Source of the DNA: Candidatus Methanophaga sp. AG-394-G06
GTDB lineage: Archaea > Halobacteriota > Syntropharchaeia > Alkanophagales > Methanospirareceae
Direction of reading: 5' to 3'
Assembly (NCBI GenBank): GCA_009903405.1
Contig: PRCZ01000001.1
Location: 55,612 to 119,611, forward strand
Length of the DNA: 64,000 nt
The notes beneath the pieces were generated by a model. That model saw only the letters and a program-made list of their open reading frames with translations, was not told the DNA's origin and did not search any database. The translations under genes and the position numbers were made by a program. Shown here piece by piece: positions 5,132 to 40,123 of the stretch (its first letter is position 1; each line of letters begins with the position of its first letter).

Positions 5132-5602
5132 ATCAGAATTTAGAATAATGTGGGTGGCTGCGATAGCGAGGGCATCCGTGACATCATCGGGCTTTGGCAT
5201 TTCCTCTAATTTGAGATTCGCCATTACACTGGTGGCGACTTCGCTCTTCGTTGCCCTGCCATATCCGGTTATAATGCTCTTTACTTCGGAGGTGTTATAT
5301 TCATATGCCGGTATGTCGGAGATCGCAGCAGCTAAGAGACAAACTCCTCGTGCCTGACCAACACTTAACGCCGTCTTCACGTTGGTATTGAAGAAAATCA
5401 TCTCTATCGCCATAACATCAGGCGTCACGGCCTTTATCACTGCGAGCAGATCATAATAGATCTTTTTTAATCGCTCCGCATTCGATTGCGCGGGAGTTGT
5501 CTTCACATAACCAAAATCAATTGGTTTCAATCGCCCGTTGTTTAACTCGACAACACCCCATCCAGTGCGAGCAGTTCCTGGGTCTATTCCTATCACACGC
5601 AT
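5114..5602 (-). CDS. ruvC: Bacterial-type Holliday junction resolvase RuvC
   Basis: MRVIGIDPGTARTGWGVVE, AIEMIFF, PDDVTDALAIAATH. These give the full D-E-D-D RuvC signature in 162 aa. Confidence 0.85.
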   Translation of the reverse strand: MRVIGIDPGTARTGWGVVELNNGRLKPIDFGYVKTTPAQSNAERLKKIYYDLLAVIKAVTPDVMAIEMIFFNTNVKTALSVGQARGVCLLAAAISDIPAYEYNTSEVKSIITGYGRATKSEVATSVMANLKLEEMPKPDDVTDALAIAATHIILNSDLQIQH

Positions 5603-5610
5603 AAAAAAAT

Positions 5611-5650
5611 CTTTCTTTCAAAAAGTTTTAAAACCTTTACCAAAGAAATA
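5611..5650. repeat. 40-bp intergenic element, copy 1 (TTTTAAAA-centred imperfect palindrome)
   Basis: ctttctttcaaaaagttttaaaacctttaccaaagaaata; 39/40 identical to 5672-5711. TTTTAAAA lies about 27 nt upstream of the ruvC ATG. Confidence 0.85.
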
Positions 5651-5671
5651 ATATACCTCATATAAGATAAC

Positions 5672-5711
5672 CTTTCTTTCAAAAAGTTTTAAAAACTTTA
5701 CCAAAGAAATA
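5672..5711. repeat. 40-bp intergenic element, copy 2
   Basis: ctttctttcaaaaagttttaaaaactttaccaaagaaata, 61 nt downstream of copy 1 and upstream of csl4. Confidence 0.85.
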
Positions 5712-5768
5712 TTAATTATATTATATAAAATAAATTGTTAAAGGGAGTGAAAAGAAGAAAAGGAAGTA

Positions 5769-6817: not shown

Positions 6818-7900
6818 ATGGACCAGATAAAGAAATATGAATTCAGGAAGATATTGGAAGAACTGAGGGAAAAGACCGGGCGAGGAACCGAGCTCGTTTC
6901 TGTTTACATCCCGTATGATAAACAGATCTCAGATGTTACTTCTCAGCTCCGTTCGGAGTACGGACAGGCGATGAACATAAAGAGTAAAACGACACGTACT
7001 AATGTTCAGAGCTCTCTGGATTCCATATTAGCAAAGCTGCGGTACGTGCGTGTGGATGAGAACGGATTGGTTATTTTCTGCGGCGCCGTAGCGAAGGGAG
7101 GAGACAGGACAGATATAGAAACATTCATTGTGGAGCCGCCAGCGGAGATACATTCCTATATTTACCATTGCGATTCGAGCTTCTTCCTCGAGCCACTGGA
7201 AGATCTAGTGGACGAGCACGAAAAATACGGCTTGATTGTGCTTGACAAACGAGAGGCAACTATCGGTGTATTGAATGGGAAGGTGATAGAGTCGCTGAAG
7301 CACATAACCTCCGCAGTTCCGGGAAAGATGAGAAAAGGTGGGCAGTCTGCACCGAGATTCCAGCGGCTGCGACTAATAGCAATCGGTGATTTTTATAAGC
7401 GAATAGGCGAACATACAACACAGGCATTGCTTCATATGGACCTGAAAGGCATTTTGATTGGTGGTCCCAGTCCGACGAAGGAGGAATTTTTAAAGGGGTC
7501 TTTCCTGCATTATGAGTTACAAGATAAGATTCTAGGTATTTTTGATGTCGCCTATACGGATGAATCAGGACTTTATGAACTCGTAGACAAAGCGGAAGAG
7601 GTATTAGAAGGGTTGGATTTGGTGCGTGAGAGGAAGCTGATGACAAAGCTCATGAAACTATTGGTTAATAAAGATTCTCTGGTGGCATACGGGGAACGAG
7701 AAGTGCGGCGGAAATTGGAACATGGTGCGGTGGATACGCTTTTGGTCTCAGAAGAGCTAGACAAGGAGCTTGTGCACGAGTTGGTGGAGATGGCTGAGGT
7801 GATAGGGTCAGAGGTGGAACTAATTTCGACTGAGTTTGAGGAAGGTGCGCAGTTAAAGCGAGCTTTTGGTGGTGTTGCTGCTATATTGCGCTATGGCTAG
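6818..7900 (+). CDS. prf1: Peptide chain release factor aRF1
   Basis: NIKS motif (AMNIKSKTTR), GGQ motif (KGGQSAPRF), 360 aa. Confidence 0.95.
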   Translation: MDQIKKYEFRKILEELREKTGRGTELVSVYIPYDKQISDVTSQLRSEYGQAMNIKSKTTRTNVQSSLDSILAKLRYVRVDENGLVIFCGAVAKGGDRTDIETFIVEPPAEIHSYIYHCDSSFFLEPLEDLVDEHEKYGLIVLDKREATIGVLNGKVIESLKHITSAVPGKMRKGGQSAPRFQRLRLIAIGDFYKRIGEHTTQALLHMDLKGILIGGPSPTKEEFLKGSFLHYELQDKILGIFDVAYTDESGLYELVDKAEEVLEGLDLVRERKLMTKLMKLLVNKDSLVAYGEREVRRKLEHGAVDTLLVSEELDKELVHELVEMAEVIGSEVELISTEFEEGAQLKRAFGGVAAILRYG

Positions 7901-8400
7901 AAGGTAAATTCGTGACATGGGCCTGTGTCCGCCCCACCGATTAAAAGCACACACACCAAAAGGCTTATATATATCATGTACACTTCCAATTTTTAACGGT
8001 CTGCTTTATGGAAGGCAATGAAAACGAAGAGGGACCTTACTTAAAGCGATACGAACGAAGCGTACTTTAGCTTGACCTGAAACGGCTCGGAACCATTTTG
8101 TGATGAAATCATCAATTTTCTTATTGTATTATCTAGATACTCAATATAGAATAAAGAACCCACCGCCGCCTTCGGAATTCAGCATCCTACCAGAGGCGGT
8201 GGGCAGTTATCTCTTCGTCCGGCAAACACACACCGGCGCGGGATAGCGGCCTGGTCATCGTCTACGCACTGGCACACCATCCGTGCGTTTAAAGAAGTGA
8301 CTCTCCCATCGGAGTCTCTCCTTATCAGCTAAAAAATTTGACTTTATGCTGTCATTGAAGCTTTCTGTTCTTTCCTCATTGTATACAAGGTATGATAGTT

Positions 8401-8436
8401 CTTTGGTAAAGCTTTTAAAACTTTTTGAAAGAAACG
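8401..8436. repeat. Third, inverted copy of the 40-bp TTTTAAAA-centred element
   Basis: The reverse complement cgtttctttcaaaaagttttaaaagctttaccaaag matches 5611-5645 and 5672-5706 except at the central base. Lies 15 nt past the stop of the STAND gene. Confidence 0.8.
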
Positions 8437-8450
8437 TTTGTAGAAAGTAG

Positions 8451-11400
8451 TTACAGCTCCTGAAGAATGCGAAAGCCGAGGTCGATGTAGCGGACGCGGG
8501 GGTCGCGGCGGTCACGAAGAGCAGATCGGCACTCCACTGTGTCGCTGAGCCAGCCACCGCCGCGACCGATCCGGTCGGCCCCATCGGGAGGCCCTTCTGG
8601 GTTGCTGTCAGGACTATTTGCATAATAGTTATCATCATACCAGTCAGAACACCATTCCCAGACATTGCCGGCCATATCAAAACATTCATATAGACTTTTC
8701 CCTTTTGGGAATATACCTACGGGACTGGTACGAAGTAATCTTGACTCATCGGTATTGCACAAATTCTTATCAAAGTCTTCGCCCCAAGGATACTTAAAAC
8801 CTTTTGTCCCACGGGCTGTTTTTTCCCACTCGGTTTCTGTCGGCAGACGATACTGATGTCCCGTTCTTTCACTTAACCAATTAGCATATGCTTCCGCTTC
8901 ATACCAGCTTATACCAACCACAGGGAAATTGGGACCATTCCATTTTCGGTCATGCCAGTATCCAGGTTTGGAAATCTTGTTTTCTTCACGCCACAGCCAT
9001 CCTTCTTCTGACCACATATCTTTCCTAGCCTTACCGTAACCACCGTCATCAACGAATTCTTTAAATTCGTCATTTGTTACCGGATACTTGCCGATCCAGA
9101 AATCGTCAAGATAAATTTCACGTTGTGGTTTTTCATTAGAATATGCATCTGCATCATCCTCTCCACTTCCCCGTATGAACTTGCCACCTTTTACAAGAAC
9201 CATATTATCCTTTTTAATACGCAGGTCGCCCAGTGTGCCGATGATTTCGCCTGCCTCGAATCGCTCTTCCAGACTGGCATTAGACTCAATCAATTTATAC
9301 AGTTTATTACGTGCCAGAGTCACAACTTCATCATCCCTTTTGGAAGGCTGGAAATCGCGCAGTGCCCTCGAACCGAGAAGCCAGAGCCGTCGTTTGATTT
9401 TTTCATCTTCTTGTTTTGTGTTTAAAATCGCCTCTACTACGTCGTTACTCCTCTTTCGCATCTCAAGATTCAAGAAACCGGTATATAGGAGAATCGTTTC
9501 CGCCCACCAGTCATTCTCAACAAAATCTGTATAGTCAATATCCATATAAACGATCTGCTTTGCCGCCATAAATTCCTGAAATGTTAGATGTGTAAACTCT
9601 ATTTCACCGCCACTAAGCAGGTTAAATAACCCGCAGTTGGGTTCGAATTCGTCAAACAGATGCTTTATACGCCTTTGGTAAACATTCACCTGCTCATCTT
9701 CCTTTTGAACGGAAATTATCTTCAATATATCTAACCCATCACCTACTTCAAAGGTCTTGAGATTCTTATTCTGCATATCAAAAGCTAAAAGCATGAGAAA
9801 CTCCCGAACCTCACTCACTTTATCGGGTTCCGCAGGGTCGTGGAAACGCCGCCACAATAGATTCTCTACTATGCGGTCGTAGAGGTCAGCTCGCTGTCCC
9901 GGAATACGTCCACCTGCCAGGTAGAGCACGCACACCGCGGCTAACAGCAGTGGGTTCTGAGTGAAAACAGATACGTGTTCATGAAACACTATATCTGAGA
10001 TCATATCTTCTGCAGTCATATCTGCAAGTCCAGTGGCTTTGCCTGAGACCGCTCTGAACCATTTCCTTATGAATTCGTTTATCTTTTGATCATCCAGATA
10101 TTCGATTTCACAAATGTATTTCCCAAACCGTTCATTAGGTCTACCGGCAATACCATGTGGTCTCCCGGTAATCAAAAAACGGTTCTTTTTGTTCTCGAAT
10201 TGGAAGTCCGCGATGAGTTCGACAAGGTCATCACGAATTTCCTCCGGGATCTCGTCTAGACCATCGAACATGAGCAAGGCCCTGTTATGTTGAAGGAAAT
10301 TGGATATAACCGCCAAGTCTAGGGGGCATTTGCTTTTTTCAAGGTATGCTTCCAATAGCGGTTCAAAAGTGATTCTCGCTCCAGATTTCTTCAATTCTTC
10401 GCGGTAAACGAGCCATAGGTCTTTTAGAAATACTATCACCGGGAGGTAGTCCCTGAGGGCGTTCTGACACGAGCCCTCGATTATTGTATTAGCGAGATGT
10501 TTTATCAACGTTGTCTTACCCATGCCAGCCTTGCCACGCAGAAGAATGCAATTTACCCGCCCTAGAAGCGCCTCGATGTCTATTGTTGCGGGCTCTTTCA
10601 AATCCGCTTCTCCTTCAAGCTCGTCTTTCTGTTCCAATCGTGATTTTTCTTCATGATCCTTACTCATTCGCTCCATTTCCGCTTTATAGAAAGGGTTGGC
10701 CGTTTCAAGAGGAATATAGACCTCGACTAGTTGAACAGGAAGTACTTCTCCTTTCTTTGCTAACTGATCATAAGAAATAGTCGAGTGGAAATCTCGTACC
10801 CAGTCCTTGTATTCCGGCGGGATTTTTTGGGATGGTTCTATTTGAGGACCCTGAGGGAACTCAAAGGTATTAAGATCGAAGTATTCCTTCCCCTTCTGCA
10901 CTTTCCAGCATTCCCCATCCGGGACGAATTCATTCCGCCTATCATCCAGAATATAAGGCCAGACCCTCACAGCCACACCTTTTTCCTGGAACTCGACACG
11001 AACGAACTGAAAACCTATCCGCCCATTTCTATTATCTGTGTAAGATGCATTAGCCCCGAGGCAAATATAAGAATTTGAGGGGACTCTAAGCACAAATGCC
11101 TTATCGGCATGGATATGTCCATGAAGTACTAATCCACAGTTCTTGGATAATTCCACATGAGATTTGCCAAAATCTTGCTCATTAAACCAATCGAAAGGGT
11201 GATGCGTCAAAAGTATTTTGTTCTGAATTGTTGACATATATATAGCATTCATCACCTGTGGAAAACCGAGGGTTATATTAAATCTAACCCTATCAGTTTC
11301 TGAAGCCCAGCAACTGTTGAGACCTAAGAAAGAGACGTTCTTATCCTTAAAGTTCTTGACCCAAAAGTAGTCGTCTTCTGATCTGTAAAGATCGGGATTT

Positions 11401-11822
11401 AACTCTTGCACAAATTGCCGAAATGGCTTAAATTTGACATTGATATTGCTCTTTCTTTCCTCTTCATCTTCAAGAAAAGCATCAGTTTGCTGTTTCTTGA
11501 CAATATCGTGAAGCGAAAAATATTTCGATACATTATCTCTATCCACATCGTGATTGCCGGGGACGACAAGGAAGGTTGTTTTTTCTGGTAATACTAATTT
11601 AAGGTCGGCAAAGAAACTTTTTGCTTCTTCGTATTCTTTTCCCGAAAACGCAATGTCGCCTGTAACTGCAACGAAATCGAGATCTAAATTATTCTTGCCT
11701 ATATGCTCATTTATTTTAGCATGCATTTTTGCTCTTACATCTTTTCGAAAGGTTTTGTTTTCGTCGTCTTTGTCCCTTTTAAAATGGATGTCGGACAGAT
11801 GCAGTATCTCGATCTTGCTCAT
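8451..11822 (-). CDS. STAND-class NTPase fusion: metallophosphoesterase - NACHT-type P-loop - helical repeats - FGE/SUMF1-like domain
   Basis: MPE motifs LHLSDIHF, GDIAFSG, VPGNHD, THHP, LHGHIH. Walker A GKAGMGKTT (nt 10512-10535), Walker B LLMFDGLDE. C-terminal GKYPVTNDEF, WYEAEAYANW, RLPTETEWE, GNVWEWCSDWY, RGGGW, LGFR. Confidence 0.85.
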   Translation of the reverse strand: MSKIEILHLSDIHFKRDKDDENKTFRKDVRAKMHAKINEHIGKNNLDLDFVAVTGDIAFSGKEYEEAKSFFADLKLVLPEKTTFLVVPGNHDVDRDNVSKYFSLHDIVKKQQTDAFLEDEEERKSNINVKFKPFRQFVQELNPDLYRSEDDYFWVKNFKDKNVSFLGLNSCWASETDRVRFNITLGFPQVMNAIYMSTIQNKILLTHHPFDWFNEQDFGKSHVELSKNCGLVLHGHIHADKAFVLRVPSNSYICLGANASYTDNRNGRIGFQFVRVEFQEKGVAVRVWPYILDDRRNEFVPDGECWKVQKGKEYFDLNTFEFPQGPQIEPSQKIPPEYKDWVRDFHSTISYDQLAKKGEVLPVQLVEVYIPLETANPFYKAEMERMSKDHEEKSRLEQKDELEGEADLKEPATIDIEALLGRVNCILLRGKAGMGKTTLIKHLANTIIEGSCQNALRDYLPVIVFLKDLWLVYREELKKSGARITFEPLLEAYLEKSKCPLDLAVISNFLQHNRALLMFDGLDEIPEEIRDDLVELIADFQFENKKNRFLITGRPHGIAGRPNERFGKYICEIEYLDDQKINEFIRKWFRAVSGKATGLADMTAEDMISDIVFHEHVSVFTQNPLLLAAVCVLYLAGGRIPGQRADLYDRIVENLLWRRFHDPAEPDKVSEVREFLMLLAFDMQNKNLKTFEVGDGLDILKIISVQKEDEQVNVYQRRIKHLFDEFEPNCGLFNLLSGGEIEFTHLTFQEFMAAKQIVYMDIDYTDFVENDWWAETILLYTGFLNLEMRKRSNDVVEAILNTKQEDEKIKRRLWLLGSRALRDFQPSKRDDEVVTLARNKLYKLIESNASLEERFEAGEIIGTLGDLRIKKDNMVLVKGGKFIRGSGEDDADAYSNEKPQREIYLDDFWIGKYPVTNDEFKEFVDDGGYGKARKDMWSEEGWLWREENKISKPGYWHDRKWNGPNFPVVGISWYEAEAYANWLSERTGHQYRLPTETEWEKTARGTKGFKYPWGEDFDKNLCNTDESRLLRTSPVGIFPKGKSLYECFDMAGNVWEWCSDWYDDNYYANSPDSNPEGPPDGADRIGRGGGWLSDTVECRSALRDRRDPRVRYIDLGFRILQEL

Positions 11823-12418
11823 AGTACCACCACTTTTTTATTTTATGTTTCTTTTATTGTATTTATTTACACAGATTGCACGTATTTATTTTTATCTCAC
11901 TCTGCAATAATGAGTTTGTCAACTTTTTGTTCTGCTTTTGTACTCTGAGACCGCCGCTCATCCAATAAATATCCGTGAAATATGCACTACCAGTTTAACA
12001 ATGTTACAGTCCACACTTTATCTGCCAGCTAACATCTACTGGCGGTGTGTCTATATCAAACATATGGAATGCATCTCCATCACAAATCCATTTTGATTTG
12101 TTTTTTGGCGTTCCTTGCCAATAATAGATATGCCCATCGGCAAACCCTAACCTGTTCCCCACATACTCCCATACTGGACAGGGAATTTGCCCTAACTCGT
12201 TCCATTCATCTTCTGTTTAGAGCTTTTGGCTTTTGTTGAGATAAGCAGAGTAGACAAAGAAGAGAGTGCATCTGGCGTAGCGTCTTATAGGGTTAGAATT
12301 ACAGAAGAGGGGCTGAAAGTAGCAAAGAAGATTCTCAAGAGTCTGAAAACCTAAAGAACCTGTACAAACTAAAAGCCCTTTGGAACGGTATAAAAATTAT
12401 ATCTCTATACTGGTAAAT

Positions 12419-13135
12419 CTATGCGGGTGACGTGATCGCACCCATATCACTAACAAAATACTCATAAAACGCGCTCCCCGCCTCAATACTACCATTGTAT
12501 TGGATCGCTGCATCGTCCGGTTGAAAAGCCATGAAATTAACAAAGCCCATATTAATAAGATGAGGGTATTTGAAATCGATGACGCTTTCCGCATTAACGG
12601 TAACATTCAGATCAGGAGTTGAGAATACTACCTTGACTGGCCTTTTCCTGTTGAACTCACTCTCAGTTATCCAATCAGTTTCTGTAATCATTATTTCATC
12701 GGCTGAATACTCTGCAAGTACCGTCCCATTATGCTTGTCCAGCAATATCATGTGTTTATACGAATAATCATTGTAACCATCATCCAGATCATCAGAGCTG
12801 TAATTCAAATTATAGCCCGAAAAAGCAGAGCCATTAAATCTCTTTACGCCATCCGGGTACACATAGTCCACGTAAGGAGTATGCAATGCTATGTAATGGA
12901 CCAGAGTAACAAAGAAACCAATATCCTTCTCTTCACCATCAGACGAGGCTAATGTTGCCCTCCCATTTAGGTACTACCATTCGGCCATAAAGTCAACATT
13001 GTAATCTGTCTCTAAGTGCCCACCTTCGGTAAAGTCTGCCATATTTGCAGATGAATCCGCGGATGTGGGCTCTATGCAGATCACCACCACAAGCAATAAT
13101 GTTAACCCTAACAGTATGTTACTTGTTTTGTTCAT
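12419..13135 (-). pseudogene. Secreted hypothetical protein interrupted by one in-frame TAG
   Basis: ATG at 13135 gives MNKTSNILLGLTLLLVVVICIEPTSA (signal peptide)...DFMAEW-TAG(12974-12976)-YLNGRATLASS..., running in frame into track ORF 12419-12886. Confidence 0.6.
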
Positions 13136-13236: not shown

Positions 13237-13268
13237 ATCTGTGTCAATCTGCGTTAATCTGTGTCAAT
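13237..13268. repeat. Three tandem 10-bp units (atctgtgtca/atctgcgtta/atctgtgtca) overlapping the stop of the beta-helix gene
   Basis: Read directly. Same ACRCAGAT(T) unit family as 1414-1441, 35438-35472 and 48461-48488. Confidence 0.6.
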
Positions 13269-16200
13269 AATTTATTTTCTTATTCATTATCCAATCTGCG
13301 ACATTATCAATAACAATTAGAGCTACATGACCGGGTATGAAAAGATCCGCGGGCGTGGCCTCACCAGTGCCGGGCACGACCATAAAGAGATGATTATAAT
13401 CAGAATAAAGAATAAAGCACACGTTATTTTTCCCGGTCAGACCTTTTATCCACATCTCATAATCTACCATTGTAACGTGGTAATCGCGTTCTCCTTGAAG
13501 AATAAGAATAGGGCAAGACAAATTTCTTGCTGTTTTTACGGGATTATAATCACTTAAATCCTCCCAATAAGATTTCGGAGCGCCTAAGAGTATTTCACCG
13601 TTGCTTATGTTAAGTTCTTTCACTTTCTTTGCTTGTTCCCTTAGTTCTTCTAAGCTCTTTAGTTCCTTATCGTCTATCTTTCCATCCAGAGATGCCAGAT
13701 ACTCTGTTTGTTCTATAATTAGATCCGGTAAACTTCTCGCCCCGGCAGCAAGGAGAATAACTCCAGAGATGTTTTCATCGCGAGCCGCTATCCGAGGAGT
13801 GAGATACCCGCCCCAACTATGCCCCAAAACGGAAATATTGTCAGGATCAATCCTTTCGGTTTCACGAAGCAAATCAACTGCTGCTATTGCATCATCAATC
13901 GTCTCATCGTTTACTGTGAAATTATCATTCTTAATCATAGCAATGCATTCTTCTGGATATCGGTAGGTGCGCTTGTCATAGCGGAGCACGGCAATGCCCT
14001 CCGTAGCAAGTCCCCATGCGAGGTCTTTAAAGGGCTTATTGGGGCCTATAGTTTCATCCATGTCCTCTGGTCCGGAGCCCGCGACTAAAACAACAGCACG
14101 AAAAGGCCCTTTCCCTTTCGGTATGGTTAACGTTCCCGGCAACTTCCATTCACCTGTGCCAACTGTGCATTCTATTTCCGTGAATGAGTCAGGATCCGCA
14201 TATTCTGGGGGTTGGTATATTTGTTGAAAATACAGCCCCGCTATCTTTTCATCATTGTCAAAAACTATTCTCGCCTCAAGGAAAGCGTTGGAAACGTTGC
14301 ATGAGACACAAACGATTTCATAGCCCTTTTCCTCTGTGCTACTGATGTTCACGATTCCTGTACACACGCCATATTGATCAATCAAACCATTCCAGGTTGC
14401 ATTGAGTTTATCAACAGGTAAGGCTTCAGCCACATCCTTGTTAAAAAAATCATGTGCCTTTTCAAATTCACCTTCATTGAGGAGATTAATAAATGTCTTA
14501 GCTATTGTTTCCATATTAGCCGTAGCTGCTACTTCCGTCTCAGATTCACTACTTATGTAGTACTCAAAAGGCTTCGTTAAGGGATAATCATCACATTCAT
14601 CCTTTTCTGAATCTATGCTATAAGGTGTGTTTCCAATGCCATTTGCATCTGCCCTCCCTTTGTAATCAGCCCAATAGTTGCCTAAGTAGCTCTCGTAAGT
14701 TGTTCTGTTATACGTGTAGGTTATTTCTTCTGGCGAGTTCCAGATGTTGGCTGATGCATAAGAATCAACATTAGCAAAAATGTTGTTTATGAAGTTGTTG
14801 ATATAGATGCTATTGTTGCTGGAAAAGGAGAGGTCGATGCCGTTATTGCTGTTCTTGACATTGTTGCCTGTTATGGTGTTGTTGCAGGAAGATGAGAGGC
14901 GGATGCCCGTATTGCTATTGTTGTGGATAGTATTGTTTAAGACTTTACTATCTTCTGTCTTCCAAAGTCCTATCCCAACACTTGTATTGGCTAAATCCAG
15001 ACCTTCTACCGTGATATTAGTGCAATTGACAAGTATAACCTGTCCTGCATCTCCAACCGTATAATCCGAAGCATCTTCCAGATAAACAAGAGGCTTACCA
15101 TTTACTGTATTGTCTTCCACGGCGTTTTGATAGTGCTCAAAAACAGAAAGACCACAATTTACAAATGTATTGCCTGTTATGGTGGTGTTGCTGCAGGAAT
15201 CCCAGAGGCTGATGCCGCCAATGCTGTTGTTGCAGACTTTGTTACCGGTTATTGTGTTGTTGCTAGATCCCCAGAGGCTAATGCCGCCAATGCTGTTGTT
15301 GTTAAGTTTGTTGCCTGCTATGCTGTTGTTGCTGGAACGGGAGAGGCAGATGCCATTTCCGTTGTTGCTAACAGTATTGTTTAAGACTTTACTATCTTCC
15401 GTCTTCCATAGTGCTATCCCAACGCTCGTATTGACAAAATCCAGATTTTCTACCGTTATATTAGTGCAATTGACAAGTATTACCTGTCCTGCATCTTCAA
15501 CCGTATAATTCGAAGCATCTTCCAGATAAACAAGAGGCTTACCATTTACTATATTGCCTTCCACGGTGTTTTGATAGGAATCATCAACACGAAGACCATC
15601 ATTTACGAATGTATTGCCTGTTATGGTGTTGTTGGTGGAACGGGAGAGGCTGATGCCGTCATCGTTGTTGTCGCCGACATTGTTGCCTTTTATGCTGTTG
15701 TTGCTGGAACGAGAGAGGTAGATGCCGCCACAGTTATTGTGGACATTGTTGCCGGTTATTGTGTTGTTAAAAGGGAAGAGCACGAAAGAGGAGAGCCAGA
15801 TGCCGACATTGCTGTTGTTGCCGACATTGTTGTCTGTAATGGCGTTGTTGGAAGAGTCGCCGGAAAGGTAGATGCCAACATTGCTGTTGCTACTGGCATT
15901 GTTGTCTGTTATGGTGTTGTTACTGGAATCTGAGATGCTTATGCCGTCCCCATTGTTGTTGCTGGCATTGTTGCCTGTAATGGAGTTGTTGCTGGAATCG
16001 GAGAGGCTGATGCTGCCACAGTTGTTGTTGCTTACATTGTTGTTTGATATTCTACTGTTTTCTGTCTTACATAACTCTATACCAACGTCCGTATTAGATA
16101 AATCAAGATTTTCCACTGTGATATTAGTGCAATTGACAAGTATTACCTGTCCTGCATCTTTAACCGTGTAATCCGAAGCATCTTCCAGATAAACAAGGTG

Positions 16201-16863
16201 CTTACCATTTACTGTATTGCCTGCCACAATGTTTTGATAGGAATCATCAACACGAACCCCATTATTTACAAATGTATTGCCTGTAATGGTGTTGTTGTTG
16301 CTGGAATCGGCGAGGTAGATACCGCCATATTTGTTGTTGCTGACATTGTTACCTGTTATTGTGTTATTGATGGAATCGGAGAGGCTGATGCTGTATTCGT
16401 TGTTGTAGAGATTGTTGCCGGTAATGGAGTTGTTGCTGGAAGAGTCGACGCTGATGCCGTCACTGTTGTTGCGGACATTGTTACCGGTTATTGTGTTGTT
16501 GCCGGAAATTACTCTGATCCCAGCACCATTCCACATACTCCCAGAGTTTGTTGCATTGAATCCTTCAAACGTAATCCCATCTGCATTTAAAGTAATCGCA
16601 CTACCACTGCCGTTTACATCCACAACAGGATAATCAATCCCTTTTAGTGTAATCGATTTATTAACATACACATGTTCATGGTAAACACCGGAATGTACTA
16701 TAATCGTATCGCCCATAGAAGCATTATTTATCGCTTCTTGTATCACTGAAAAATCAGCCCCGCTGCTGCCATCCACAGACCAGTTCGTTGCAGATGCAGT
16801 AGCCACAAAACTCAGCACCAAAATCGTAGCCCATATGACCAATAGCCTCCCTCTTGTATCCAT
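13264..16863 (-). CDS. Secreted surface protein: parallel beta-helix (NosD/PbH1-type) repeats + DUF3887-like + alpha/beta hydrolase domain
   Basis: Signal peptide. Dozens of ITGNNVxNN beta-helix rungs. Three VNGKxLVYLEDASxYTVxDAGQVILVNCTNITVE modules. C-terminal GHSWGG nucleophile elbow with downstream D and H. Confidence 0.85.
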   Translation of the reverse strand: MDTRGRLLVIWATILVLSFVATASATNWSVDGSSGADFSVIQEAINNASMGDTIIVHSGVYHEHVYVNKSITLKGIDYPVVDVNGSGSAITLNADGITFEGFNATNSGSMWNGAGIRVISGNNTITGNNVRNNSDGISVDSSSNNSITGNNLYNNEYSISLSDSINNTITGNNVSNNKYGGIYLADSSNNNTITGNTFVNNGVRVDDSYQNIVAGNTVNGKHLVYLEDASDYTVKDAGQVILVNCTNITVENLDLSNTDVGIELCKTENSRISNNNVSNNNCGSISLSDSSNNSITGNNASNNNGDGISISDSSNNTITDNNASSNSNVGIYLSGDSSNNAITDNNVGNNSNVGIWLSSFVLFPFNNTITGNNVHNNCGGIYLSRSSNNSIKGNNVGDNNDDGISLSRSTNNTITGNTFVNDGLRVDDSYQNTVEGNIVNGKPLVYLEDASNYTVEDAGQVILVNCTNITVENLDFVNTSVGIALWKTEDSKVLNNTVSNNGNGICLSRSSNNSIAGNKLNNNSIGGISLWGSSNNTITGNKVCNNSIGGISLWDSCSNTTITGNTFVNCGLSVFEHYQNAVEDNTVNGKPLVYLEDASDYTVGDAGQVILVNCTNITVEGLDLANTSVGIGLWKTEDSKVLNNTIHNNSNTGIRLSSSCNNTITGNNVKNSNNGIDLSFSSNNSIYINNFINNIFANVDSYASANIWNSPEEITYTYNRTTYESYLGNYWADYKGRADANGIGNTPYSIDSEKDECDDYPLTKPFEYYISSESETEVAATANMETIAKTFINLLNEGEFEKAHDFFNKDVAEALPVDKLNATWNGLIDQYGVCTGIVNISSTEEKGYEIVCVSCNVSNAFLEARIVFDNDEKIAGLYFQQIYQPPEYADPDSFTEIECTVGTGEWKLPGTLTIPKGKGPFRAVVLVAGSGPEDMDETIGPNKPFKDLAWGLATEGIAVLRYDKRTYRYPEECIAMIKNDNFTVNDETIDDAIAAVDLLRETERIDPDNISVLGHSWGGYLTPRIAARDENISGVILLAAGARSLPDLIIEQTEYLASLDGKIDDKELKSLEELREQAKKVKELNISNGEILLGAPKSYWEDLSDYNPVKTARNLSCPILILQGERDYHVTMVDYEMWIKGLTGKNNVCFILYSDYNHLFMVVPGTGEATPADLFIPGHVALIVIDNVADWIMNKKINY

Positions 16864-31052: not shown

Positions 31053-34000
31053 ATGGCGGACATCAAAAAAATTCAAACAATCTTTAAAAAGCTTTACGGG
31101 ATAATAGAAAGCGCTAAGGATATTTCAGAAGAGGATTTACGAGTCGAATTTGTTAATAGCGGTATTCTCAAAGAGCTCGGTTACAAGGGAGAGTTAGAAG
31201 ACATAAGATTTGAAAAAGGTATAAAAGGTAAAAGAAGCGACCTACTTGCATTTGACGACTACAAAAACGTTAATTTCGTGGTGGAATTCAAGAAGGCGTT
31301 AGATTTAGAACAAGATTTTGTGCAACTCTGGGAACGATACGTAAAACCGTTAAAAGCGAGATATGGGGTGCTTACTGATGGCCAGGAACTTGTGATATAT
31401 GAACGGGTGAACACTAACAGTGAGCTAAAGATAAGATTAGACCTTAGCGAGGTTACCTTATCCCAGTGCGAAGAGATTTCTGCCTGGCTAAAAAAGCCTA
31501 AAATAGAACGAACGAAGATTAACGAAGTGCTCAGCTATTTCAAGCGGTTTGATGACCCAAAGGAAAGGGTAAATTTATCCACGGATATTTCACAGCAGTA
31601 TTTCTTTGACAGTTTCGAATTAAAAGGGGATTCCATCTTTGTGAACTTGGTTCAAAAGACGATTGGTCTTTTTGATTTTGAATTGGAACGGTCTATGTTC
31701 CTTAAAAGTGCATACAACTTCTGGAAAATTTCGTACGCAAAGAAGCCAGATAAAGTGCCTGAAAACTGGCGGAGGATAATGGATCATATCGGGCTTGAAA
31801 CGACCGAAGAGAATCTGTTAAAATTTATGTTCTGTTTGGAAAGTGCCTATTCTTTGTTCACACGGTTGATTCTGGCGAAAGCATGTGAGGATTACAAATT
31901 GCCATACGTTGAGTTTTCAAAATTCATTAAGACTGAAATTGAGAGGACATCTTACAGGGGCGACATTACGCTCTTAGCATGGGCAATAACCACGAAGAAT
32001 CTAATCGAGAGCATGAAGCAGAAACTTGTGAAATCCGTTTTCGAGGGCGATATATTCTACTGGTGGGAAGACAGTTATAGTGAATTGAAACCCGGTGCTG
32101 CTCTTTACAGTCCACAGTATGAGAAGCAAAAAGCTCGCTTTGGCGAAGCCCTTGCTGAGATCATATTAACGCTATACAAATTCGATTTTTCTGAGATTGT
32201 TGGTGACCCGCTCGGAACACTCTACCAGCACTATTTCGATAAGGAGACCAGAAAGGCACTTGGAGAATTTTATACGCCAAAAGAGGTGGTTGAGTACATA
32301 CTCGATGCTGTTGGCTATGAAGGGCGAGGTGTTATTGGCAAACGTTTATTAGACCCTGCATGTGGCTCAGGTACGTTTTTGGTAGAAGCGTTAAGGAGAT
32401 ACCTGAAAGCTTCAGAAGAAATAGCAGAGGAAAAAGGCTGGCCGGCGATTTTAAAAGAGCTCTGTGACGAATTCTGCATCGCGGGTTTCGACATTCATCC
32501 ATTTGCTACTTTCATGGCACAGATGCAGTTCATGCTCGTCTTGATTCCCGCATACAAGAAAGCGATGGATGAAGACCCACATTTTGTCTTGAACCGTCTG
32601 CCGATTTTCAGAACGGATTCTCTGGTTGACGAAACGAAAGGAGAAGCGATGAAAGTAACTATCGCGACTTTCGAGGATGGTATTCGATATATCGTAATTG
32701 ATACGAGCTTACCTGTTGAAGGCGGGAACCTGAAGATAAAGATGCCGTATTATAAAGACGTATTCGCAAAAACAGATTTGTTAAACGTTCAGGAATATTT
32801 TGCAGCACTTCAAGCGGTTTTTGACACTGTAAAAGAGTCGGCATGGCAGGAGAAATATGTAGTTGATAAAGAGAAGCTGGAACGGAATTTCAAGCTGTAT
32901 CTTGAAGATAAGGATTGGAATGGATTGGTATCTTTCTTTATGTCTTATGCGGAGCACTTCTTGCTGAAGTTCGAGGAACTCAAAGAGACTTTCGGTGACG
33001 GTAAGCTGATAAAGTCTGTCGAGGACTTGATGCTTGCTGCGATTCTGAAGAATTATGTGAAGTATGATTTTGTGGTTGGGAATCCGCCGTATGTGAGGGT
33101 GCAAATGCTAGATAAAAAGCAAAAAGAAGGGTATAAAAAGCTTTATGAAAGTGCTTTGGGCAAATTTGATATTTACACGCTATTTATTGAAAGAGGTATT
33201 AGTTGGCTGACAGATGGCGGAAAAATCGGATATATTGTATCAAATCAATTTATGGTTACGAATTATGGCGAAAAAATACGAAGAATAATTGTGGACAAAA
33301 CAAAAATAAATCAATTAGTAGATTTTGGTGATTCTGGAGTATTTGCAGACGTAACAAATTATCCCGCGATATTAGTTTCAGAAGCAATTAGTGACAGTAA
33401 AAACATAAAAAACCATAACATCAAGGTTGCCAAAGCATACTGGCCTAAAGAAAACTTACTCCGTGAAATAGAATCTAGACTTACTGAGCACTTGTTTTAC
33501 ACAAAACAATTTGAGATTTTTGAGTATCCTCAGTTAGAACTGAAGGATAAAACTTGGGACCTACTGGCACCTCAGGAAAAAAGTGTTTTTGATAAAATAG
33601 AAAGAAGTGGAGTGAAACTAAAAGAAATTACAGAGAGAATATTCCAAGGAATAAATACCGGGCATGATGAAGTATTTTTTGTTTTGACTTTAGGAACTGA
33701 TAGCGAAAAACAAATTAAAATTCGGCATATTAAGAAGGAAGAAGCGTATAACCTTGAAAAAAGTTTGTTGAAACCACTTCTTAAAGGTAAAGAAGTTCGA
33801 AGATATAGAATTGACTGGAGCGGACTATACGTCGTTTATCCACACAAAAAAGATAAAATAGGGGATAGAAGCGAAGCAATAGCAATACCAGAGGAAGAAA
33901 TGAAAAGAGAATATCCCATTGCGTACAATTATTTTAAACTTTTTGAATACGAACTAATGCAAAGAAAATATTTGATGGACAGTATTGAAAAAGGAAAAAG

Positions 34001-39708: not shown

Positions 39709-40123
39709 TTTTATCCATTTATATCTCGTACAAACAAACATTTAAATATATCGGAATTTCTCTTTCGTAACAAATCAAATGATGGCGGTAGAGAGTTCAG
39801 CACGGAATGATGAGTTTCATCATGACCTTTGTTGCGGAGTCTTCTTATGAAAGCCATAATGTTTATATGTGGTTGAAAACATATAAAAGTATCGGAAAGC
39901 TGTTTGATTATGGAATTATGGGACAGCCTCTTAAGTCCTTAAGCTGCGGAAAACTAGCCCTTAACCGCTTACTACGCCCACCCTTTATCCGCTTCGATAT
40001 CCCGTTTACCGAATATTTCGGCGGGTATTTTATAAAGATAATTCAATACCCCTATTTATAATGGTGATAGGATGGCGAGTCATCCAACTTGTACCATAAA
40101 GAAAGAACGAACGAAAAAAAACA

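Follow-up and report, generated by a model that had tools for sequence, protein, structure and literature searches.

Which function should be assigned to an archaeal protein that joins a metallophosphoesterase, a NACHT ATPase and a C-terminal domain annotated as an enzyme? The protein has 1123 residues and is encoded by an uninterrupted open reading frame (ORF; 8451..11822, minus strand) in a 64,000-nucleotide stretch of Candidatus Methanophaga sp. AG-394-G06 (assembly GCA_009903405.1, contig PRCZ01000001.1, positions 55,612 to 119,611), hereafter the window. Its homologues carry the public names 'hercynine oxygenase' or 'formylglycine-generating enzyme' (FGE). We consider it probable that the gene encodes a cytoplasmic immune sensor of anaerobic methanotrophic archaea of group 1 (ANME-1), a signal transduction ATPase with numerous domains (STAND) resembling the NOD-like receptors (NLRs), and that its lectin tip, which belongs to a family diversified by diversity-generating retroelements (DGRs), was fixed after decay of the local DGR cassette. 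Domain identities, the DGR membership of the protein family, local decay, hotspot location, effector swapping and purifying selection are directly supported and carry this assignment.

Domain architecture and selection

Pfam recognized three domains in the protein: Metallophos (residues 6-239, E 3e-9), NACHT (PF05729, residues 426-591, with 49.8 bits where the cut-off is 26.7) and FGE-sulfatase (residues 872-1120, E 1.5e-62). An earlier reading of the window made from its letters (the sequence-only reading) had described a three-part protein of 1123 residues with an effector-STAND-sensor layout; the ORF and the Pfam domains bear out the three parts, and Pfam and the fold agree with the layout. 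Every motif quoted there occurs in the protein. Motif conservation was scored on an alignment of 72 full-length homologues, in which the majority of the motif residues show no or almost no variation. A full-length AlphaFold2 model is confident for the metallophosphoesterase, the NACHT domain and the helical arm, and poor for the lectin domain. Compared with two ANME-1 homologues, the ratio of non-synonymous to synonymous substitution rates (dN/dS) is 0.18-0.34 for the phosphoesterase, the NACHT domain, the arm and the lectin domain outside the variable region, within which it is 0.7-1.0. The gene is under purifying selection and, judged from its sequence, the protein looks functional.

The NACHT domain contains a Walker A motif GKAGMGKTT (residues 430-438, nt 10509-10535) and a Walker B motif LLMFDGLDE (516-524), which fit the consensus patterns GxxxxGK[ST] and hhhhDGhDE and are followed by FLITGRP (549-555) and FTHLTFQEF (743-751); FLITGRP and FxHxxxQEF motifs are typical of NACHT. 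Residues G433, G435, K436, T437, T438, D520, G521, D523, E524 and R554 are invariant in the 72 homologues, as are H745, Q749, E750 and F751 of the FTHLTFQEF motif. The region was modelled with a predicted local distance difference test (pLDDT) score of 80-94, and Foldseek matched it to NLRP3 (7alv, E 8.7e-13), NOD2 (5irl, 7e-12) and NAIP/NLRC4 (5e-9). In the model, the central module is predicted to have the NLR-type fold of nucleotide-binding, helical and winged-helix domains (NBD-HD-WHD). Pfam and Foldseek thus agree on the STAND/NACHT assignment, for which the sequence-only reading had named profile searches and a fold comparison as checks. The arm is all-helical in the model, with a pLDDT mostly of 75-94; of the HEAT-like repeats suggested earlier, helical repeats are modelled at residues ~771-864, but there is no Pfam HEAT match.

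A DGR-type variable region at the C-terminus

In PDB sequence searches the lectin domain matched FGE, EgtB and the DGR target TvpA (2y3c) at 3e-15. The pattern RV.RGG.W...A..CRSA.R....PR.R...LGFR describes the end of the protein, some ~40 residues, in all 120 homologues listed. Constant scaffold residues are interleaved in it with positions that are unlike in nearly every homologue, an alternation that spans residues 1080-1118 and was measured on the 72-sequence alignment. Eighteen hypervariable sites were found at residues 1083-1114, mostly with an entropy of 1.8-3.5 bits versus a whole-protein mean of 0.63, as calculated from 18 ANME-1-type sequences at least 65% identical overall. The codons of the variable region (VR) at these sites are mostly NNC.

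With a degenerate DNA pattern derived from the bases of the scaffold, VRs were picked up in several ANME-1 metagenome-assembled genomes (MAGs). The same pattern also found copies outside ORFs with AAC at the variable sites and the translation RGGSWNNNARNCRSANRNHNDPRNRDNNLGFR, which are the template repeats (TRs) of ANME-1 contigs. The 18 hypervariable codons coincide with the adenine-containing codons of these TRs. Between cognate TR and VR, mismatches at adenines and at other bases number 19 and 0 in locus L100, 15 and 2 in L099, 16 and 0 in L125, and 13 and 0 in L126. Between the window VR and the ANME-1 TRs, 19-21 of 30-31 adenines and 13-14 of 95-96 other bases are mismatched, and the adenine bias is significant (Fisher p 6e-8 to 3e-7). 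The window VR thus keeps the adenine signature of the DGR target family.

These sites also bear on the annotation as an FGE/EgtB-family enzyme that would serve in biosynthesis or modification. Such a function would agree with the public names, with the Pfam FGE-sulfatase match and with a match to TIGR03440 (EgtB) of 141 bits. This last match falls far short of the 360-bit cut-off and takes in only the FGE-like half of the profile (positions 171-412), and the window protein lacks a DinB-like domain. The catalytic cysteine pair of human FGE is C336/C341. When the window protein is aligned to 6muj and 2q17, S1093, a site with an entropy of 3.2 bits, stands at the place of the first catalytic cysteine, and only the second is kept, as C1098; no part of the protein varies more than the region where the active site would lie. 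The public names are misleading because the catalytic cysteine site is hypervariable and the EgtB match partial, and an enzymatic role of this kind is extremely improbable. Taken at the level of sequence, the 'FGE' domain is a DGR variable domain and not an enzyme. The earlier proposal of a SUMF1-type FGE domain acting as a generic sensor gives way on the same grounds, since the catalytic cysteine site is hypervariable and the variable sites match TR adenines.

DGR cassettes in other ANME-1 contigs

Complete cassettes (L125, L126) show the order target gene with a 3' VR, HRDC, bAvd, a reverse transcriptase (RT) of 334 residues, TR and a ~134-nt GC-rich element which ends in a strong hairpin and a T-run. 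HRDC, bAvd and RVT_1 genes are on record for L125/L126, and a Pfam scan identified HRDC and RVT_1 in L099. One and the same locus is represented by L125 and L126 in two MAGs, with identical TRs but different VRs, which indicates ongoing diversification. In a variant cassette (L099/L090), an Avd fragment is fused to an RT without the first ~22 residues of the enzyme. Beside an intact-looking TR and 3' element, the RT is shortened to 116 residues in L100/L087 and to 17 codons in L098 (Ga0307422_1030734), so cassette decay is common in these genomes.

Among the targets of these DGRs are NACHT-lectin proteins whose N-termini are metallophosphoesterase, TIR or ParA-like+TIR modules, a TIR-lectin protein adjoining a TIR-STAND-TPR gene and a SLATT gene, and a coiled-coil-lectin gene located after a KAP-type NTPase gene. 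ANME-1 MAGs show several TRs and many VR-bearing targets, on separate contigs. The closest relatives of the RT belong to ANME-1/Halobacteriota (74-88%), Methanolobus psychrotolerans (66%) and Aminicenantes (60%), and several bacterial STAND-lectin loci also bear HRDC and RT genes. The RT of M. psychrotolerans, of the same DGR clade (66% identity), lies on a 59.7-kb contig (P0156), and this species is a candidate experimental host.

With a covariance model, the 3' element was found after every ANME-1 TR tested, including those of L125-L128. Weak matches (E 0.002-0.2) were obtained in bacterial loci, after the TR in L010 and downstream of the RT in L011, L022, L046 and L059; they may represent a conserved DGR RNA module of the clade or be no more than terminator hairpins. 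Among the six ANME-1 copies compared, no compensatory pairs occur, because the sequences are too similar. Adding three of the weak bacterial matches gave double changes in 24 of 38 pairs, in an alignment that is model-fitted and in which helix 3 may be a terminator hairpin; the structure of the element is suggestive. Rfam has no family for it at the gathering threshold or at E<=1, the only match being a chance one to SNORD22 on the other strand. A viral origin of the element was also considered and set aside, with no match among viral contigs.

A decayed cassette and an apparently fixed variable region

On the minus strand, past the stop codon of the window gene, an AT-rich palindrome is followed by an HRDC stub and then by the element normally found 3' of the TR. 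The flank at 7901-8450, taken as 0.55 kb of non-coding DNA in the sequence-only reading, thus holds the remains of a DGR cassette. The stub shows 82% identity to residues 15-47 of the L099 HRDC protein (E 7e-14), which in its full length matches Pfam HRDC at 7e-19. The orphan element is 97% identical to that of L089 and 91% identical to that of L091, scores 161.6 bits with covariance model R1, and has a predicted fold of -58.9 kcal/mol (z -2.7). The region downstream of the VR was compared between the window, L001 and L097 on one side and L099 and L081b on the other: in L099, which bears an RT, and in L081b, the VR is followed by a GC-rich hairpin region (including CCCGCC-GCGA-GGCGGG), in whose place the window has the palindrome.

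No RT was detected in the 64-kb window, where tblastn with the L099 RT gave noise only (E>4). A repeat search and blastn with an ANME-1 TR recovered the VR itself and no TR in the same 64 kb, and nothing like Avd was found there. The sequence-only reading had stated that the gene stands alone; it has no partner gene today, but it has survived from a DGR cassette of several genes. Since RT, TR and Avd were lost locally, the window VR would be a fixed allele from a once-diversifying repertoire.

The VR itself points in the same direction. It shows 13-14 non-adenine mismatches to every recovered TR, compared with 0-2 in cognate pairs, and at some of its variable codons the third position has drifted (GAG, ACA, CTT). 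In the copy of AG-394-G21, an ANME-1 single-amplified genome, the protein differs from the window protein at 72 residues and the VR is identical; 71 of the 72 differences lie within residues 62-528, the exception being L735R. Two metagenome fragments of the same 90% cluster differ from the window at one VR residue each, and in one of the two this VR is joined to a TR 3' flank. The VR therefore appears to be fixed, as it is identical in a second strain.

The VR could alternatively still be diversified in trans by an intact DGR (RT and TR) elsewhere in the genome, in which case the local relics would be irrelevant. The distribution of TRs and VR-bearing targets over separate contigs of ANME-1 MAGs fits this possibility, trans-diversification of degenerate loci has been proposed for Thiohalocapsa (PMC10907252), and the 3' end of the window VR (GGCTTTCGC.TTCTTCAG) is still common to VR and TRs. 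Against it stand the non-adenine mismatches to every recovered TR, the codons drifted at the third position, the replacement of the GC-rich hairpin region downstream of the VR, and a VR that is identical in a strain with a ~12% diverged N-terminal half and nearly so in the two metagenome fragments. We regard diversification in trans as unlikely.

Decay of the cassette raises a further possibility, that the gene is itself a non-functional relic on its way to a pseudogene: the flanking DGR genes are deleted or truncated, and the gene at 12422-13135 is disrupted. The 1123-codon ORF is nevertheless unbroken, with all catalytic motifs, its dN/dS is ~0.2-0.3, and the gene is intact in the second strain, which makes a relic very improbable.

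The palindromic element, which includes TTTTAAAA, is also present in tandem at 5601-5653 and 5662-5714, in the RuvC-Csl4 intergenic region, the copy at 8382-8439 being inverted. In sibling genomes it occurs in the same intergenic region (L101-L103, L105, and L123 at ~8750-8920). It could be a promoter/terminator module or an insertion like a miniature inverted-repeat transposable element. Assemblies tend to break at this element, and the Logan contig L082 ends inside it. A JGI contig of 1133 bp (P0122) contains a window-type VR with E1097D and a C-terminus ...GFRLLQCIAMP, in which the VR runs into a TR 3' flank; this junction suggests a VR/TR recombination product.

The metallophosphoesterase effector and its exchange

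The motifs LSDIHF, GDIAFSG, VPGNHD, THHP and LHGHIH fit the metallophosphoesterase set DxH, GD, GNH[DE], H, GH and GHxH. Residues H13, D56, N90, H91, H207, H208, H236 and H238 are invariant in the 72 homologues, and D11 is conserved in at least 90% of them. PADLOC models matched this domain as PDC-S60 (2.4e-38), for which no literature was found, and as 'Effector Endonuclease' (1e-21). The NCBIfam model DS8_antiphage (NF053861) matched with an E value of 8.4e-39 and 133 bits against a cut-off of 790, and this match is confined to residues 8-286, which correspond to profile positions 1-277 of 994. The sequence-only reading had proposed PADLOC as a check, but no Avs or bNACHT model matched the window protein at E<=0.1, and the only other PADLOC match was that of the P-loop to PDC-M16A.

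Foldseek neighbours of the N-terminus are YydB (9a6c_B), Lmo2642, Rv0805 and SMPDL3A/B, and a PDB sequence search with the domain gave only a weak match, to aq_1665 (1xm7). As to the substrate class, the structural neighbours include cyclic-nucleotide phosphodiesterases (Rv0805, Lmo2642) and SMPDL3A/B, while the profile matches include the 'Effector Endonuclease' model.

Among relatives, the N-termini are metallophosphoesterase, TIR or ParA-like+TIR modules, swapped at residue ~327. This module boundary was placed by comparison with P0029, a ParA-like+TIR variant which shares 82% identity with the window protein over the whole part from residue 327 onwards and has an unrelated N-terminal part. 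The synonymous divergence (dS) of the window phosphoesterase module is 1.0-1.26, and that of the remaining gene 0.3-0.4. This contrast shows a mosaic origin of the effector module and, with the differences from AG-394-G21 taken into account, indicates recombination at the effector boundary. The N-terminus begins directly at the metallophosphoesterase motif (MSKIEILHLSDIHF), which suggests that the protein has no leader peptide and is cytoplasmic.

A hotspot shared with restriction-modification genes

The gene and the remains of its cassette occupy a variable slot between conserved flanks. Nucleotide homology to the sibling genomes L102, L103 and L123 ends at ~8160, and homology to L102 resumes at ~12408. 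In these three siblings, whose aRF1 is 95-97% identical, the slot contains genes for a YgjP-like peptidase and HsdR, and in L103 additionally HsdS, HsdM and a transposase fragment; four other sibling assemblies break ~1 kb or less from aRF1. The block TBP-ParA-RuvC-Csl4-tRNA-Gly-aRF1 is kept in the closest Methanophagales MAGs, and its core RuvC-Csl4-aRF1 in ~20 MAGs. A housekeeping partner in conserved synteny was considered and rejected, as the gene is absent from the slot in the three siblings whose contigs extend through it. The sequence-only reading had asked whether orthologues sit in variable islands of related genomes, and the window gene does lie in such a slot, which holds type I restriction-modification genes in three siblings. 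The alternation of the cassette with type I restriction-modification at a hotspot favours a role of defence type over a housekeeping one. Another ANME-1 contig has two paralogues grouped with one TIR and one ATPase_2 gene in an unrelated setting, and genes found clustered with paralogues are of TIR, ATPase_2, SLATT and caspase type.

These findings also weigh on a non-antiviral role, in which the protein would be a receptor for kin or partner recognition, or for development, in ANME-1/sulfate-reducer consortia, and the metallophosphoesterase would be a second-messenger phosphodiesterase. The cyclic-nucleotide phosphodiesterases Rv0805 and Lmo2642 and the SMPDL3A/B proteins are indeed structural neighbours, and an enrichment of DGR-STAND systems is described among organisms that are multicellular or form aggregates (PMC10907252, PMC7159879). 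The N-terminus, however, suggests a cytoplasmic protein, for which direct sensing of partner cells would be unlikely; furthermore, the gene replaces a restriction-modification system at the hotspot, its effectors alternate with TIR, and the homologous DS-8 defends against phage. On balance, a receptor of this kind is doubtful.

Proposed mechanism

For the preferred reading, a cytoplasmic NLR-like immune sensor with a fixed tip, we infer the ligand, the oligomerisation, the substrate and the immune phenotype as follows. In the family, the lectin tip is rewritten by mutagenic retrohoming from the TR. In the window, RT, TR and Avd are deleted, HRDC is reduced to a stub and the GC hairpin region is swapped for the AT-rich palindrome. 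The remaining lectin tip would bind a foreign molecule in the cytoplasm, most likely a viral or mobile-element protein. Binding would lift the autoinhibition of the NACHT domain and lead to ATP-dependent oligomerisation, and the clustered metallophosphoesterase would hydrolyse a nucleotide or nucleic-acid phosphodiester, with arrest or death of the infected cell. DS-8 lends this mechanism support by analogy.

Several points speak against this reading. The lectin domain has a pLDDT of only 25-60 in the AlphaFold model, and the exposure of the variable sites at the surface is presumed from TvpA-type precedents. The PADLOC and NCBIfam matches span the metallophosphoesterase alone and are under whole-protein cut-offs. 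The apparent freezing of the VR is based on four sequences of one 90% cluster, and recent recombination could instead have produced the identical C-terminal half. The RT/TR search spans the 64-kb window, and an RT and TR may act in trans from elsewhere in the genome. Finally, the presumed role of the GC hairpin in retrohoming is drawn from Bordetella phage work.

Other features of the window

The coordinates of the features are collected in Table 1. The window gene is flanked by aRF1 (6818-7900, plus strand) and by a gene for a NosD/beta-helix-S9 peptidase protein (13264-16863, minus strand), the housekeeping and surface-protein neighbours named in the sequence-only reading, which was also right about pseudogene debris on one flank: the segment 12422-13135 corresponds, in disrupted form, to a gene that is intact in L102.

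Table 1. Features of the window gene and its cassette (positions in the 64,000-nt window).
Feature	Coordinates	Strand	Evidence
Metallophosphoesterase - NACHT - helical arm - C-type-lectin (FGE-sulfatase-fold) gene	8451..11822	-	ORF, translation, Pfam, dN/dS
Effector module, residues 1-326, calcineurin-like metallophosphoesterase with complete metal-binding motif set	10845..11822	-	Pfam, PADLOC, NCBIfam, Foldseek
NACHT nucleotide-binding domain, residues ~421-600	10023..10562	-	Pfam, invariant residues, Foldseek
Helical arm, residues ~601-870, with FTHLTFQEFMAA motif and helical repeats	9213..10022	-	AlphaFold model
C-type-lectin / FGE-sulfatase-fold ligand-binding domain, residues 871-1123, non-catalytic	8454..9212	-	Pfam, PDB sequence matches
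DGR-type variable region (VR), 126 nt, residues ~1080-1121	8460..8585	-	Hypervariable sites, template-repeat comparison
AT-rich palindromic element, 58 nt, in place of GC-rich hairpin region	8382..8439		Inverted repeat with 5607-5712
HRDC accessory gene stub, 33 codons	8279..8377	-	tblastn with L099 HRDC protein
Orphan GC-rich three-hairpin element, normally directly 3' of TR	8152..8285	-	Identity to L089/L091, covariance model
Variable cassette, 4.25 kb, flanks common to sibling ANME-1 genomes	8160..12408		Nucleotide homology

The disrupted copy (minus strand), in which there is no Pfam domain, is homologous to a 375-residue ORF at 15113-16240 of L102; it is broken into two pieces that overlap, and an in-frame TAG lies near 12975. 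Between the promoter of the window gene and the shared flank, the island-specific segment 11823-12408 contains short ORF fragments, such as a C-terminal fragment of ~35 residues ending in ...EEGLKVAKKILKSLKT* (~12250-12355, plus strand). The 13264-16863 gene encodes 1199 residues with NosD/right-handed beta-helix, DUF3887 and S9/alpha-beta-hydrolase domains and shows many internal repeats of 61-300 nt; L102 matches it by two short ORFs only (139 and 231 residues), so its length varies between strains. Farther away, there are a weak HsdM-like match at 32178-32390 (37% over 71 residues) and a transposase-like fragment at 39828-39929 (74% over 34 residues), as well as direct-repeat pairs at 30255-30333/31664-31742 (92%), 50274-50492/51093-51311 (83%) and 61113-61263/61272-61422 (79%).

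Comparison with known systems

Kaur et al. (2020) linked the FGS domains of conflict systems to DGRs (PMC7159879). According to Kibby et al., FGS is a C-terminus of 'antigen receptor-type' in bacterial NACHT proteins, and calcineurin-like phosphoesterases are among the effectors (bioRxiv 10.1101/2022.07.19.500537). In Thiohalocapsa, Dore et al. (2024) reported DGR-diversified lectin domains fused to NACHT, nSTAND1, TIR and Metallophos, together with degenerate loci and trans-diversification (PMC10907252), and a 2026 preprint (Gao lab) found FGE-sulfatase-like sensors among defence-associated STANDs (PMC12803255). Archaeal DGRs were described in the ANMV-1 virus and in DPANN/Nanoarchaeota, with targets that are tail-fibre-like or without recognisable domains (Paul et al. 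2015, PMC4372165; Roux et al. 2021, PMC8144416). In the literature searched, no link of DGRs to cellular ANME-1/Methanophagales genomes or to archaeal STAND proteins was found.

The sequence-only reading held that such domain combinations had been catalogued only computationally, never tested, and not in archaea. Bacterial NACHT+FGS/FGE proteins and DGR STAND-C-type-lectin (STAND-CLec) proteins, including Metallophos fusions, are indeed in the catalogues, and the third statement seems to hold for the literature searched. The second needs correction for the metallophosphoesterase+NACHT part: DS-8 was validated in E. coli with catalytic and NACHT mutants (PMC13092281).

DGR-diversified STAND sensors are thus known in bacteria; for ANME-1, no description of them was found. 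As a tentative, broader reading, ANME-1, whose members live in multicellular consortia, may possess a DGR-driven hypervariable repertoire of lectin-tipped STAND, TIR and KAP-NTPase sensors, in which the tip of the window protein was selected and then locked at the loss of its retroelement, the protein continuing as an immune sensor armed with a metallophosphoesterase, and in which the 3' element is a hitherto undescribed functional RNA part of the DGR. As part of the same reading, and with the same reserve, this repertoire might correspond, on the archaeal side, to the 'adaptive-like' antigen sensors that have been proposed in multicellular bacteria. If this is true, retroelement-diversified NLR-like receptors reach an archaeal lineage which is of global biogeochemical importance and lives in aggregates, and this would bear on the proposed link between multicellular lifestyle and hypervariable immunity. 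The decay series (intact RT, Avd::RT fusion, RTs of 116 and 17 codons) can be used to ask under what conditions diversification persists and when specificity becomes fixed, and the window locus, a fixed-tip receptor beside a wrecked diversifier, offers a natural 'before and after'.

The closest likeness is to the STAND-CLec 'putative antigen sensors' of Thiohalocapsa PB-PSB1 and other multicellular bacteria, where a DGR lectin/FGS C-terminus is likewise carried by NACHT/STAND proteins with N-terminal TIR, Metallophos or protease modules, with multiple targets and TRs per genome, degenerate loci without RT or TR, and conflict-system genes nearby. The ANME-1 system differs in its archaeal host, in its order target-HRDC-Avd-RT-TR-3' element and in the window copy, which lacks RT and TR and has an apparently fixed VR. 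With the bNACHT and Avs proteins, among whose sensor and effector types FGS/FGE-like domains and calcineurin-like phosphoesterases are found, the window protein shares the effector-NTPase-sensor logic; its sensor is a retroelement-mutated lectin tip instead of a fold-recognition domain of TPR type.

TvpA of Treponema denticola (2y3c) has the same C-type-lectin fold of FGE-sulfatase type with the VR at the C-terminal end. TvpA is a bacterial DGR variable protein without an NTPase or effector module, whereas the window lectin domain would be the sensor of a cytoplasmic STAND protein. Like the DGRs of ANMV-1 and DPANN (PMC4372165, PMC8144416), those of ANME-1 show adenine-specific TR/VR mutagenesis and targets that have the C-type-lectin fold; unlike them, their targets are cellular proteins of STAND/TIR conflict type, and their RT is nearest to those of Methanolobus and to those of Aminicenantes and other bacteria.

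DS-8, a single-protein anti-phage system of E. coli (DefensePredictor) with experimental data, requires both the metallophosphatase catalytic residues and the NACHT NTPase for defence, and its substrate is reported as unknown (PMC13092281). The passages on DS-8 contain no FGE/CLec sensor or link to DGRs, and only the metallophosphoesterase of the window protein matches the DS-8 model, the NACHT domain and the sensor being different. Both proteins combine a homologous metallophosphoesterase with a following NACHT domain in one polypeptide, and both have SMPDL3A-like structural neighbours. The homology to DS-8 thereby provides an experimental route to the substrate of the metallophosphoesterase effector.

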